DNA of 12,720 nt from a virus (IMGVR_UViG_3300024432_001830), one strand, 5' to 3'. Numbered from the stretch's first letter, positions 7,372-9,830 are shown. A program made the numbers and translations. The notes: generated by a model from the letters alone, not told the origin.

Positions 7372-7656
7372 TTACGTATTTCCCTCCTTATCTACGAAAA
7401 AAACAAAATCAGTATCTTTAATACTTTCAAAATTTTTCAAAATTTCTTCTGGAGCATCTAATTTGTTTTCTTGTATCTTTTTAATAAAATCTTCACAAAC
7501 ATCTGCAAATTCTCTATCCGTATTTGTATCTATTACAGTTAAAACAGTAAATACAAAAGAAGCCCATAAGATTTTTCCATTTTTTAACGCATTCTCTGCT
7601 GCGGATGTTAATAATTGTTTAAATTTATCTGTCAATCCTTGTCTTGGATCTGACAT
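7372..7656 (-). CDS. Hypothetical protein of 94 aa.
   Basis: The ATG at 7654-7656 is preceded by GAGAGGTTAGGA. The gene is on the same strand as the array. Confidence 0.55.
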   Translation of the reverse strand: MSDPRQGLTDKFKQLLTSAAENALKNGKILWASFVFTVLTVIDTNTDREFADVCEDFIKKIQENKLDAPEEILKNFESIKDTDFVFFVDKEGNT

Positions 7657-7678
7657 TCCTAACCTCTCTTTTTATAAA

Positions 7679-7816
7679 TTAACCTAAATCAACCATTTCT
7701 AAAAATTCACTCCTTAAAATAGCATTTATTATTTTTTGGAAAGTTTCATAAGTACATTCACCGTCTGGTAAATCAGATTCTCTAGTCCATGTTTCTCCAG
7801 GAATGGGAATCCACAT
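7679..7816 (-). CDS. Possible tiny ORF of 45 aa (MWIPIPGETWTRESDLPDGECTYETFQKIINAILRSEFLEMVDLG). It is below the track cutoff.
   Basis: The ATG at 7814-7816 lies 3 nt after the TAG of the 81-aa ORF, and the TAA at 7679-7681 lies just before the ribosome-binding site of the 94-aa ORF. It fills an otherwise empty 160-nt gap. Its own ribosome-binding site is weak. Confidence 0.25.
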   Translation of the reverse strand: MWIPIPGETWTRESDLPDGECTYETFQKIINAILRSEFLEMVDLG

Positions 7817-7819
7817 ATC

Positions 7820-8065
7820 CTAATTTTTTTCTCTAATCCTTTTTAGCCTCCTTTTTACCACATTTAATCTCCAAACTCTTTCCATCTTTAAACTCTTTCC
7901 ACAATTAATACAATCTAAGCCTATAAAAGTATGTTTACAAAATGCTTGTTTAGCTAAGCAAACAATAGTTTTTACGGCTAAACCTTTCTCAGATTTATTC
8001 GCAACTGCTCCCGCCATACTCTTTTGCCTGTCATATTCTTTTTTAAAAGTTTCAATAATTTTCAT
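7820..8065 (-). CDS. Small Cys4 (C-x6-C-x8-C-x2-C) putative zinc-binding protein of 81 aa with a strongly basic C-terminus (KRRLKRIREKN). It may bind nucleic acid.
   Basis: The ORF-track entry has an ATG at 8063-8065 that overlaps the end of the upstream ORF by 14 nt. The cysteines lie in CLAKQAFCKH ... DCINCGKS. Confidence 0.55.
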   Translation of the reverse strand: MKIIETFKKEYDRQKSMAGAVANKSEKGLAVKTIVCLAKQAFCKHTFIGLDCINCGKSLKMERVWRLNVVKRRLKRIREKN

Positions 8066-8300
8066 TTTCGGCCATCCAATCTAAGATATCCTCTTTATAA
8101 AAATCAGTGTCGTTTTTAGCTTCTAAAAAGGTCTTTCCATAAAAAATAGCTCCTTTTTTTCCAACATAGATTTTATTAATTGCTCCAGGAAAAACTAAAC
8201 ATGTATATCTACTGGATACTTTCGATGTTTTATCTTCAACATATCTGTCACTCTTAAAATAAGCTATTACTGTCTGTTTTGTAATTTTGGACTTTTTCAT
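8052..8300 (-). CDS. Hypothetical protein. It is 82 aa from the ATG at 8300 (MKKSKITKQ...). The ORF track extends it to 8330, giving 92 aa.
   Basis: The internal ATG at 8298-8300 is preceded by AGGAGAACACTA, a good Shine-Dalgarno site with good spacing, whereas the track start at 8330 has only AAGGGATGGC. I therefore prefer 8300. Confidence 0.5.
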   Translation of the reverse strand: MKKSKITKQTVIAYFKSDRYVEDKTSKVSSRYTCLVFPGAINKIYVGKKGAIFYGKTFLEAKNDTDFYKEDILDWMAENENY

Positions 8301-8338
8301 TAGTGTTCTCCTACAATAATTATCTACCATGCCATCCC

Positions 8339-8356
8339 TTTACTCTTCAGTATCTA
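8339..8356. repeat. Copy 1 of an exact 18-nt direct repeat (tttactcttcagtatcta). This copy encodes the C-terminus and stop of the 62-aa ORF.
   Basis: It is identical to 8834-8851. An exact 18-mer recurring by chance in 12.7 kb is unlikely even at this AT content. Confidence 0.8.
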
Positions 8357-8528
8357 TATCCAAGGCTTCTCTCGCACACTTGATTGTTTTCGTTATGTCT
8401 TCTGAAGAAAACTTTTGCTGGATGAAAATGCTTACATATTCATTATAGGAGGTATTTGAAAAAGTTATCTTAGATCTATCCATAAAATGGCCAAAATCTA
8501 ATTTAATTACATCGTGTATTACCAGCAT
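8340..8528 (-). CDS. Hypothetical small protein of 62 aa.
   Basis: The ATG at 8528 is preceded by GGAGGAGCTATT. The C-terminal codons (IDTEE-stop) lie within the 18-nt repeat at 8339-8356. Confidence 0.5.
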   Translation of the reverse strand: MLVIHDVIKLDFGHFMDRSKITFSNTSYNEYVSIFIQQKFSSEDITKTIKCAREALDIDTEE

Positions 8529-8577
8529 AATAGCTCCTCCTTTTTATAATTGTTCTCCTTCTTAATATAAGTATAGC

Positions 8578-8808
8578 TCACTTAACAGAATTGTCAACTT
8601 TTTTTTTATTAAATACTATTGTGTTTTCTTTTTCTGGAACATCACTAGCTTTGCCGTATTTTTTAAGTAAGGGCTCTATAGGTTCATCGGGGAAATATCC
8701 TTTTTTGAGTAATGTTACGACATCGTTCATTTGACGTTTATAAATTATTGGAAAACCAAGCTTTAAATTACGATTGGCATTTTGTAAAGCTTTTAAAATA
8801 CTTGTCAT
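8578..8808 (-). CDS. Hypothetical small protein of 76 aa. It shares the C-terminal motif KENTIVFN with the 50-aa ORF at 9150-9302.
   Basis: The ATG at 8806-8808 is preceded by AGGATGAA. The shared motif is also visible at DNA level (8611-8631 matches 9171-9191). Confidence 0.5.
   Translation of the reverse strand: MTSILKALQNANRNLKLGFPIIYKRQMNDVVTLLKKGYFPDEPIEPLLKKYGKASDVPEKENTIVFNKKKVDNSVK
8611..8631. repeat. Copy 1 of a 21-nt near-repeat (aa[a/g]tactattgt[g/a]ttttcttt) in the 3' coding end of the 76-aa ORF. Copy 2 lies at 9171-9191 in the 50-aa ORF.
   Basis: The two copies match at 19 of 21 positions. Both are in frame and encode KENTIV(F/L)N. Confidence 0.7.
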
Positions 8809-8833
8809 TTCATCCTATCTTTTTTATTATTAG

Positions 8834-8851
8834 TTTACTCTTCAGTATCTA
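8834..8851. repeat. Copy 2 of the 18-nt repeat. This copy is non-coding and lies 26 nt upstream of the 76-aa ORF start.
   Basis: It matches 8339-8356 exactly. Its reading frame is blocked by an upstream stop, so it looks like a remnant or a regulatory copy. Confidence 0.8.
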
Positions 8852-8854
8852 CTT

Positions 8855-9079
8855 TTAGTAATATACTATTTTTTTAAAAAAAATGTCTTTTGACAACCCA
8901 AATTCAGGAACAACGGATTCGGTCCATTCAGAATGTTCATATGCCATTTGATTTAACCATTTTAGTTCTTCTTTTGATGGAGTATCAAACTCCTCCTTAT
9001 CAGAACCTCGCATAGTTTCGTTTAAATACCATCTCAATAATTTTTCAAATTTAGCTTTTTCAGACATGTAACCCTCCAC
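8855..9079 (-). CDS. Hypothetical small protein of 74 aa.
   Basis: The ATG at 9079 is preceded by GGAGGGTTAC. Confidence 0.55.
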   Translation of the reverse strand: MEGYMSEKAKFEKLLRWYLNETMRGSDKEEFDTPSKEELKWLNQMAYEHSEWTESVVPEFGLSKDIFFKKIVYY

Positions 9080-9149
9080 TATACCGTTAATTAGTATACA
9101 ATTTCTACCAAATCACGGCAGGTTATTTGTTTATCCCAGTAAATCTCTC

Positions 9150-9302
9150 TTAATCCTCTTTTTCTTCGTTAAGTACTATTGTATTTTCTTTGTCTTTTAG
9201 CTGATGTATTTTTCGTACATAACTAGCAGCTAATTCTAAAGAGGGTGCTTCTACTCTACCCTCTTTCCATTTATTGTCGTAAAATATTTTATACGTATAC
9301 AT
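9150..9302 (-). CDS. Tiny ORF of 50 aa (MYTYKIFYDNKWKEGRVEAPSLELAASYVRKIHQLKDKENTIVLNEEKED). It is translationally coupled to the upstream zinc-ribbon gene through a TGATG overlap. It is below the track cutoff.
   Basis: The ATG at 9300-9302 overlaps the TGA (9302-9304) of the FmdB-like ORF by 1 nt, and the TAA lies at 9150-9152. Its C-terminal motif KENTIVLN is paralogous to that of the 76-aa ORF. It fills a 220-nt gap that would otherwise be non-coding. Confidence 0.4.
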   Translation of the reverse strand: MYTYKIFYDNKWKEGRVEAPSLELAASYVRKIHQLKDKENTIVLNEEKED

Positions 9303-9475
9303 CAATAATTAGTATCCCACGTAATTCTAAAAGTAGTAAAACTAATAAGCTTAGTGACTTTAACTTTTTTCTTGCATTTAGGGCATCTTGCTATTTTCTT
9401 TTCATCATTTATCTCATGTTCAATTTCAAAAACTGTTTTACATTTCTGGCATTCATAATCATATCTTCTTATCAA
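9302..9475 (-). CDS. FmdB-family zinc-ribbon protein (YDYECQKCKTVFE...CPKCKKK; CxxC-x17-CxxC), about 57 aa from a probable TTG start. The ORF track starts it at a GTG at 9514, giving 70 aa.
   Basis: The motif Y-x-Y-x-C-x2-C-x2-F...C-P-x-C matches the putative-regulatory-protein FmdB zinc ribbon, which normally sits 2-5 residues from the N-terminus. A GGAG at 9483-9486 lies 7 nt upstream of an in-frame TTG at 9473-9475. The track's GTG start has no ribosome-binding site. Confidence 0.55.
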   Translation of the reverse strand: MIRRYDYECQKCKTVFEIEHEINDEKKIARCPKCKKKVKVTKLISFTTFRITWDTNY

Positions 9476-9830
9476 TATTAGGCTCCTTGTTAAAATTATC
9501 CCAACATTCTTCACTACAGGGTCTTAACAGTGCATCTTTCCTCTGTTCTATTTTTTTCTTTAGATTATTTAATGCCGTTTTGCTTTCTTCCAGATGCTCT
9601 CTCTTTAAATTCATTATTTTTTGTTTCTCTTCTGGAGGGTATTTTTCGTATATTTCTTGAATATTCGCTACCTTAAATTTTTCTCTAATCTTTTTTTCTA
9701 TATCTTTCTTAATACTTGCTTTAATATTTTCATCCTTTAAAGCTTCTTCAATTTCATCTATGTTTTGTTCTATTTCATAAATATACTGATTATATTGCTT
9801 TATTACTTTGACCCGCTCATCGACCGCCAC
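9459..9830 (-). CDS. K/E-rich coiled-coil protein of 123 aa, with a GTG start, lying immediately downstream of the MVP-homolog gene.
   Basis: The ORF-track entry begins with GTG (9828-9830), and AGGGAGA lies about 10 nt upstream. Heptad-like charged repeats run throughout. The 5' end of the gene is an unusually GC-rich patch (gtggcggtcgatgagcgggtc). Confidence 0.55.
   Translation of the reverse strand: MAVDERVKVIKQYNQYIYEIEQNIDEIEEALKDENIKASIKKDIEKKIREKFKVANIQEIYEKYPPEEKQKIMNLKREHLEESKTALNNLKKKIEQRKDALLRPCSEECWDNFNKEPNIDKKI

Follow-up and report, generated by a model that had tools for sequence, protein, structure and literature searches.

What kind of gene cluster is the run of very small genes between a nuclease-like gene and a coiled-coil gene in the viral genome fragment IMGVR_UViG_3300024432_001830? 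The window analysed here is the whole 12,720-nucleotide (nt) stretch, which has 31% GC and carries its entire gene set on the minus strand; the genes and repeats located below are all given on that strand. An earlier note on this DNA had described ten coupled open reading frames (ORFs) of 45–94 amino acids (aa) at 7372–9514 and had proposed a fast-evolving island for host takeover or anti-defence. Our analysis points to a different and, in our judgement, probable answer: the block is a composite in which a conserved core of four small genes has received lineage-specific small-gene inserts, and it forms an operon-like unit in a nucleotide-metabolism and replication region of a phage genome.

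The minus-strand array was confirmed, but it holds nine ORFs of 45–94 aa, filling 7372–9475 between the genes for p253 (6605–7366) and the 123-aa coiled-coil protein cc123 (9459–9830), and the count of ten is reached only when cc123 is included. The small genes were named s9 to s1 in the order of transcription, and their starts were refined by ribosome-binding sites, homologs and public gene calls. Between 9830 and 7372, ten sense ORFs of at least 45 aa covered 92% of the DNA, compared to a mean of 0.97 ORFs (maximum 5) and a mean coverage of 6.5% (maximum 34%) in 1000 dinucleotide shuffles. When a codon model trained on the MVP-like (major vault protein-like), GyrB-like and p166 genes of the window was used to compare the annotated frame with the five others, the annotated frame of every small ORF was preferred by 0.14–0.39 nats per codon, with values of about 0.3 for the large genes. 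The highest score among the nine was that of s8 (0.391), and s5 had the weakest signal. The JGI and ENA gene callers had independently given the same genes on four contigs that are 99.8–100% identical and come from different samples; these contigs differ by a single substitution within the block, which is too few for a selection test. Together, these data show that the small ORFs are coding genes.

Comparison with diverged relatives showed a division of the block into two layers, a four-gene core and five lineage-specific genes. The core genes s9 (9302–9475), s8 (9150–9302), s3 (7820–8065) and s1 (7372–7656) were found in the same order beside p253 in at least three diverged lineages, in which p253 is 53–69% identical. 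In lineage B (L092–L097), the order is GNAT, s9 (49%), s8 (41%), s3 (44%), s1 (28%), an AAA_28 P-loop gene and p253 (54%). In lineage C (L110/L111), the order is DNA polymerase A, a Mom-like gene, GNAT, s9 (51%), s8 (39%; uncalled in the annotation yet intact), s3 (37%), an s1-like gene (30%) and p253 (53%). The closest relative available, L090, carries s3 (57%), s1 (61%), p253 (69%) and p155 (73%), followed by a gene for an acidic protein, and both s2 and the TnpB gene (tnpB) are absent from it; at a further locus, L109, an s1 homolog was found together with GNAT and a split DHH phosphoesterase. p253 follows the core in every lineage that carries the core, and across the deep lineages the identities of the core genes themselves are 28–51%, compared to 53–54% for p253.

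In contrast, s7, s6, s5, s4 and s2 have no homolog in the lineage B, lineage C or L109 loci, and the gap between s8 and s3 is 1084 nt here compared to 54–93 nt in lineages B and C (L092 and L110). The idea of a fast-evolving cluster was therefore supported in part, by these five genes, which are absent from the compact versions of the locus, and was weakened by the conservation in order of s9, s8, s3 and s1. The structural or assembly-chaperone role that the earlier note had set against its own reading did not emerge for these four genes. The gene turnover to be expected between relatives of such a cluster was likewise seen in part, as s2 is gone in L090 and five genes are absent in two lineages while four were kept. 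Outside the small genes, lineages B and C lack cc123 upstream of s9, and the spacing between the MVP-like and GyrB-like genes is 5.9 kb here and about 1.2 kb in L003. In 84 related loci with about 1 Mb in all, those of LR756501 and LR756500 included, the MVP-like gene has no small-gene homolog beside it; it is thus not a stable neighbour of the block.

The small proteins were searched with profiles from Pfam, PHROGs, NCBIfam and PADLOC, with phmmer against the sequences of PDB chains and, with s8–s1 joined into one query, exhaustively with HMMER against 1.84 billion representative proteins. With the four profile libraries, only s9 was identified, and PADLOC gave nothing beyond generic zinc-ribbon and coiled-coil noise; phmmer found no PDB chain matching a small protein. 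In megablast of the window and tblastn of the ten proteins against 50,697 phage records, the small genes were unmatched. The HMMER scan gave homologs for six of the eight proteins (s1, s2, s3, s4, s6 and s8), and s5 and s7 matched only themselves among the 1.84 billion representatives. In none of these searches did a small gene match an enzymatic family, and the absence of a recognisable enzymatic fold, as stated earlier, was borne out. The proposed role in host takeover or anti-defence found no such backing: no anti-defence, host-takeover or defence family was matched in Pfam, PHROGs, NCBIfam, PADLOC or the PDB sequences (dbAPIS and AntiDefenseFinder were not among the libraries), and none of the ten proteins matched a helix-turn-helix (Aca-type) family in Pfam, PHROGs or NCBIfam.

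Among the core proteins, s9 (57 aa) is, by its profile scores, a bona fide member of the FmdB family with predicted zinc binding; it scored 38.5 bits against PF09723 (cutoff 34.4) and 43.4 against TIGR02605 (cutoff 31.3). Its likely start is the TTG at 9475, 7 nt after AAGGAG, and from there the protein reads MIRRYDYECQKC...(x18)...CPKC, which is a CxxC-x18-CxxC ribbon with the first pair right after an N-terminal Y-[ED]-Y. The N-terminal motif is kept in the L092 and L110 homologs, which are 49–51% identical and share a conserved C-terminus, F(R/K)I.WDTNY. The family assignment made in the earlier note was thus upheld, and its start codon, a GTG at 9514 giving 70 aa, was replaced. A match of s9 to a Lar-like PHROG (E = 0.002) reflects generic zinc-ribbon similarity. 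The next gene, s8, starts at the ATG at 9302 and encodes 50 aa; its homolog P0029 is 40% identical, and s8 is syntenic in L092–L096 and L110/L111. A possible assignment of s8 to Band_7_C (E = 1.3e-4) was rejected, as it was below the cutoff and the homolog does not reproduce the match.

The 81-aa s3 has homologs P0019 and P0022 in addition to those at the loci described above. In the alignment, C36 is not conserved, in contrast to the invariant C43, H45, C52 and C55; this argues for a C-x-H-x6-C-x2-C zinc knuckle rather than a four-cysteine site. The zinc motif noted earlier in this protein was therefore retained, with H45 taking the place of C36 in the proposed C-x6-C-x8-C-x2-C pattern. Of the three zinc motifs that had been placed in the interval, only those of s9 and s3 lie inside it; the third, CACDKKCADC, belongs to a 232-aa gene at 4119–4817. 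The coding sequence of s3 contains a 17-nt tandem duplication (7867–7900, GGAAAGAGTTTAAAGAT|GGAAAGAGTTTGGAGAT) that shifts the frame and yields the basic tail KMERVWRLNVVKRRLKRIREKN. L090 has a single copy, and deletion of one copy from s3 restores ...CGKSLEIKCGKKEAKKD, resembling the L090 ending ...CGKSLEVKGFD. This comparison shows the basic tail, to which the earlier note had drawn attention, to be a young product of the frameshift.

The last core gene, s1, encodes an acidic and predicted helical protein of 94 aa and lies directly upstream of p253. Its homologs include P0016 (64%) and P0045 besides those in L090 (61%) and in L092 and L110 (28–30%); its AlphaFold (AF2) model has low confidence, with a predicted local distance difference test (pLDDT) score of 63.6. 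The conserved anchor gene p253 encodes 253 aa with a PD-(D/E)xK-like motif, in which D42 and E55-L-K57 are invariant in four homologs, and with a strongly conserved C-terminal block, STPFKRSCA...LHW.SY.SM.SSFR. It matched phrog_12193, a PHROG of unknown function, at 8e-14, and no Pfam family or PDB sequence.

The five inserted genes are more diverse. The best represented is s6 (8578–8808), which encodes a basic protein of 76 aa with a three-helix N-terminal domain. It matched about 25 clusters in the HMMER scan, and its family counts at least 555 proteins, nearly all of them stand-alone, 65–72 aa long and labelled hypothetical or unnamed. The family occurred in just 6 metagenome-assembled genome contigs among 185,579 species genomes and is therefore essentially phage-borne. 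The AlphaFold model of s6 has a pLDDT of 86.7, rising to about 95 over residues 1–60, and shows three helices for which no significant structural neighbour or fold match was found. In other phage contigs, the s6 family occurs within arrays of small genes, where the neighbours are DNA methyltransferases, HNH genes, a DnaA-C-like gene and a primase-helicase. One member, P0030, carries a C-terminal domain like the RecBCD inhibitor gp5.9 of T7 (Pfam 8.3e-13; phrog_6234 3.5e-10). Ten other long members had no Pfam match and no gp5.9 domain, so that the domain was seen in 1 of about 11 long members, and s6 itself had no Pfam match and lacks the gp5.9 domain (PF25708). The P0030 fusion is the one link between the block and a known anti-defence protein, and it is indirect.

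The 45-aa acidic product of s2 (7679–7816), an inserted gene or gene fragment, aligns with only the C-terminal ~43 residues of a domain of about 110–170 aa (YLGC.CSCR..PGE.WTRGSD.PDG...), and its matches in the HMMER scan were to the C-terminal 40 residues of proteins of 125–606 aa. It has a stand-alone relative of 50 aa, P0044, and a full-length relative of 172 aa, P0031, with a Cys- and Glu-rich N-terminus. The P0031 gene (L112 5712–6230; L113 2342–2860) stands directly after an N6/N4 DNA methyltransferase and a thymidylate kinase on contigs with 27–28% GC; these contigs come from the same two samples as the phage of the window and could represent a different portion of its genome or of a sister genome. 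As s2 and s3 are in frame with one TAG between them, a joining of the two by TAG recoding or read-through was considered and rejected: TAG is the normal terminator of 3 of 26 called genes, the large genes are open throughout in the standard code, and the TAG of the acidic-protein gene is followed by another stop before GyrB. Of the remaining inserted genes, s4 (8052–8300, ATG at 8300; basic, 82 aa) has a single homolog, P0017, which is 58% identical and lies in an unrelated context. The others are s7 (8855–9067, ATG at 9067) and s5 (8340–8528), with acidic products of 70 and 62 aa.

Two pairs of repeats lie at the junctions of the inserted genes. The exact 18-nt direct repeat TAGATACTGAAGAGTAAA occurs in non-coding DNA just after the s7 stop codon (8834–8851) and again at 8339–8356, where it covers the final codons of s5 together with the stop. 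The two copies bracket s6 and s5 and are 495 nt apart from start to start; no further copy of the 18-mer was found in the window or in unrelated loci, and an exact repeat of at least 18 nt arose in 0 of 500 shuffles. The second pair is 38 nt long and 84% identical, with one copy at the 3′ end of s8 (9158–9195) and the other at the 3′ end of s6 (8598–8635), where it gives the s6 tail KENTIVFN. Other s6-family members have no counterpart of this tail, and the s8 homolog P0029 has the related NTTIVLWE; judged from these alignments, the s6 tail is a copy of the s8 tail. We read both repeats as scars of short-homology recombination, by which s7, s6, s5 and s4 would have entered the s8–s3 interval and s2 the s3–s1 interval; their source would be a pool of mobile families of small phage genes. 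An ancient tandem duplication of a two-gene unit, s8 and s7 compared to s6 and s5, was also tried as an explanation. No similarity was found outside the 38-nt and 18-nt repeats, and s7 and s5 did not align; since nothing else in the two units aligns, an old tandem duplication is unlikely.

The block is packed in the manner of an operon. The stop of s9 and the ATG of s8 share TGATG at 9302 with a common A, s4 and s3 overlap by 14 nt (8052–8065), s3 and s2 are separated by 3 nt, and 17 nt are shared by cc123 and s9. Shine-Dalgarno sites (AAGGAG, GGAGGG, AAAGGAGGAG, TAGGAGA and GAGAGG) are located upstream of s9, s7, s5, s4 and s1, respectively, with that of s5 the strongest of the block, and either such a site or a stop/start coupling was found for every small gene. 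The first gene of the block, cc123, has a GTG start after GGGAGA. The shared TGATG, the 14-nt overlap and the 3-nt gap had been reported before and were found as described; the overlap of cc123 with s9 is an addition. The block is probably co-transcribed. Its best sigma-70-like promoter match (8570–8597, TTGACA-16-TATACT, 11/12), a consensus match only, sits at the end of s6 and reads into s5; promoter-like sites were not enriched, with 20 matches compared to 16.7 ± 3.6 in shuffles. No Rfam family or tRNA was found in the window.

In the reading that we favour, s9, s8, s3 and s1 would be old genes inherited with p253 and placed directly after GNAT in compact genomes. Their products would be small non-enzymatic binding proteins, adaptors or regulators acting with the phage's own DNA-metabolism or DNA-modification genes, and the conserved synteny, on its own, makes this the most likely role of the core. 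To judge from their variability and context and from one domain fusion, the inserted genes would be the better candidates for host interaction or anti-defence, and it is for them only that the anti-defence reading is a possibility. Several observations weigh against such a composite. The L090 contig begins inside s3 and so covers the block from s3 onward, not s7–s4, and no relative above 69% p253 identity spans the whole block. The p253 homolog of L004 (59%) has other genes upstream, with the core missing; the linkage of the core to p253 is therefore not obligatory. In the phage of the window, about 7 kb including the MVP-like gene separates GNAT from s9, and a direct co-function with GNAT is thus weakly supported. 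The insertion mechanism is drawn from two short repeats, and the remainder of the flanked units is dissimilar. Finally, s5 combines weak coding statistics with the absence of a homolog.

How do other explanations compare to this one? A dedicated island for anti-defence or host takeover that takes in the entire block is, in our view, unlikely; each protein would then, soon after infection begins, bind to and disable a target in host defence or housekeeping. In its favour, the proteins are small, non-enzymatic and acidic or zinc-binding, and anti-defence proteins have been described as typically small and poorly detectable by homology (PMC11724313). Five of the nine genes vary between relatives, s6-family genes and the full-length s2-like gene are found beside DNA methyltransferases, P0030 joins an s6-type domain to the gp5.9-like inhibitor, and in lineage C a Mom-like gene for DNA modification precedes s9 by two genes. 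However, the libraries searched gave neither an anti-defence or host-takeover match nor a helix-turn-helix or Aca-type regulator, the fusion was seen in one of about 11 long s6-family members tested and is not shared by s6, and four genes keep their order across a deep divergence, which is unusual for counter-defence genes. A related proposal, which we regard as quite unlikely, is that GNAT, s9, s8, s3, s1 and p253 would form an undescribed multi-protein module for DNA modification or counter-defence in a clade of large uncultivated phages, with the s8–s3 gap as a landing site for mobile small-gene cassettes, such as the widespread s6 family, by short-homology recombination; a Mom-like gene adjoins the conserved set in one lineage, C.

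That several inserted ORFs, s2 and s5 above all and perhaps the s3 tail, would be decaying fragments or by-products of recombination, open yet without function, with the core alone functional, is decidedly unlikely in our view. The partial alignment of s2 to the end of a longer domain, the frameshift origin of the s3 tail, the weak codon signal and missing homologs of s5, and the repeats at the junctions speak for this reading. Yet s2 has the best coding score among the inserts (0.385), a start codon that is intact and lies 3 nt beyond the stop of s3, and the stand-alone relative P0044; the ribosome-binding site of s5 is the strongest of the block; and none of these genes differs between the four contigs, which come from different samples. 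It is very improbable that the small proteins are virion structural, scaffolding or assembly-chaperone components. A shell-type MVP-like protein is encoded immediately upstream, and the cc123 coiled coil, from a cluster of 2 members, has a weak tape-measure-like PHROG similarity (E = 0.018), but no structural PHROG was matched significantly, the core and the MVP-like gene are not neighbours in lineages B and C, and the identifiable neighbours all belong to nucleotide metabolism or replication (NrdD, topoisomerase II, PurD, DNA polymerase A and thymidylate synthase). Most improbable of all would be that the ORFs are chance open frames in AT-rich DNA. Seven of the nine lack any Pfam, PHROG or NCBIfam match, and s5 and s7 lack a homolog in any database searched; against this stand an ORF coverage far above the shuffle maximum, the in-frame preference of the codon model for all ORFs, the translation signals ahead of each of them, and homologs of the same length, mostly syntenic, for six of the eight genes searched (s1–s8). 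For seven of the nine ORFs the non-gene reading is effectively refuted. The composite of a conserved core and lineage-specific inserts is thus the reading that we retain.

The surroundings of the block were annotated in the same way. The first 1.4 kb of the window seemed free of ORFs only because the NrdD gene runs off the window end; its N-terminal part with an ATP-cone lies at 3–1415 (Pfam NRDD 1.8e-71). The window also encodes a topoisomerase II large subunit, the GyrB-like protein (phrog_543, 4.6e-128). The extremely acidic protein encoded at 4119–4817 has tandem EELEE(T/S)-type repeats followed by the C-terminal Cys cluster already mentioned, and its 166-aa homolog in L090 keeps the acidic repeats and has the Cys cluster CSCKCGTTAC. 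Between this gene and p155 lies tnpB (4920–6119), encoding 399 aa with OrfB_IS605 and a Cas12f-like TNB domain. In L090, p155 and the acidic-protein gene are 114 nt apart with no TnpB between them, which points to a recent insertion-sequence insertion in the window; any omega-RNA of TnpB should lie in the 102 nt downstream, at 4818–4919. In JGI contig Ga0310069_106837 (L001 6583–6619, corresponding to about 6219–6255 of the window), a 37-nt tandem duplication in p155 cuts the protein to 140 aa and is a population variant of the same phage.

Upstream of cc123, the MVP-like gene (10005–12470) encodes 821 aa with a major-vault-protein shoulder domain (Pfam 5.5e-22) and without a PHROG family match. 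The uncultured phage genomes LR756501 (735 kb) and LR756500 (462 kb) contain homologs with 41–42% identity, and at least 475 stretches of metagenome DNA have them too, on contigs as long as 547 kb; over all of these, the identity is 41–49%. LR756501 has been termed a megaphage (PMC9723777). In the L006 contig, three consecutive substitutions at 11850–11852 alter MVP codon 207 (GAG in the window); no other clustered difference occurs among these contigs, which are otherwise 99.8% identical. In the 174 nt that separate cc123 from the MVP-like gene lies a perfect 8-bp hairpin at 9963–9991 (minus strand; AGGAGGTG, a 13-nt loop, CACCTCCT), which overlaps a promoter-like TTGACT-17-TATTAT and is not followed by a T-run; it may be a transcription-unit boundary or a regulatory site. 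A longer ENA contig carries PurD, a phage zinc-binding protein and a GNAT acetyltransferase upstream of the window. The MVP homologs in megaphage genomes and large contigs, together with the nucleotide-metabolism neighbours, place the window in the part of a large uncultivated phage genome that serves DNA metabolism. Directly before the FmdB gene, lineages B and C carry GNAT, which in lineage C follows DNA polymerase A and the Mom-like (DUF7487+Mom) DNA-modification gene. In the phage of the window, the ~7 kb inserted between GNAT and s9 include PurD, the MVP-like gene and others. The loci compared for GNAT are L110 4716–7006, L092 1732–2265 and L005 956–1495.

Small phage genes hold much host-manipulation biology, and the sorting of this block into old and recent genes directs experimenters to distinct sets. 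The leads are a core of four genes for small proteins that is inherited along with a nuclease-like gene, the unannotated s6 family of proteins of about 68 aa, and the sequence traces of small-gene insertion and remodelling, namely the junction repeats, the frameshifting duplication and the match of s2 to a domain end. The vault-like shell protein, widespread in huge phages, may merit its own study.

How does the block relate to systems that are already known? With the FmdB family (PF09723 Zn_ribbon_8, TIGR02605 CxxC_CxxC_SSSS and PHROG 1076 'FmdB-like transcriptional regulator'), s9 shares Y-D-Y-x-CxxC and a second CxxC 18 residues further on, and it differs by its lineage-specific C-terminus and its fixed place before s8. 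The T7 gp5.9 family is linked to the domain of s6 by the fusion in P0030, which joins that domain to an anti-RecBCD module; in s6 itself the gp5.9 domain is absent, and s8 is the source of the tail found there instead. Clusters of anti-defence genes in mobile elements and phages, such as Acr-Aca loci and anti-defence islands (PMC11724313), resemble the block in their small acidic or zinc-binding proteins, single orientation and partly variable content. The block differs from them in that it has no validated anti-defence homolog in the libraries searched and no Aca-like helix-turn-helix protein, and in that nearly half of its genes are deeply conserved. The closest resemblance overall is to the hyperplastic regions, or 'plastic periphery', of T4-like and other large phages, where, as Comeau et al. 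reportedly described in 2007, runs of small non-essential ORFs lie between conserved replication genes; to phage genomicists, the block will as a whole be unsurprising. As in those regions, co-oriented and packed ORFs of 45–94 aa lie between conserved DNA-metabolism genes, the spacing varies among relatives, the patchy content differs between them and mostly has no annotated function, and short repeats mark the junctions. Unlike in those regions, four small genes of this block are conserved and syntenic at about 50% protein identity, and the block is therefore better described as a conserved mini-module that appears to have turned into an insertion hotspot than as a purely plastic region.

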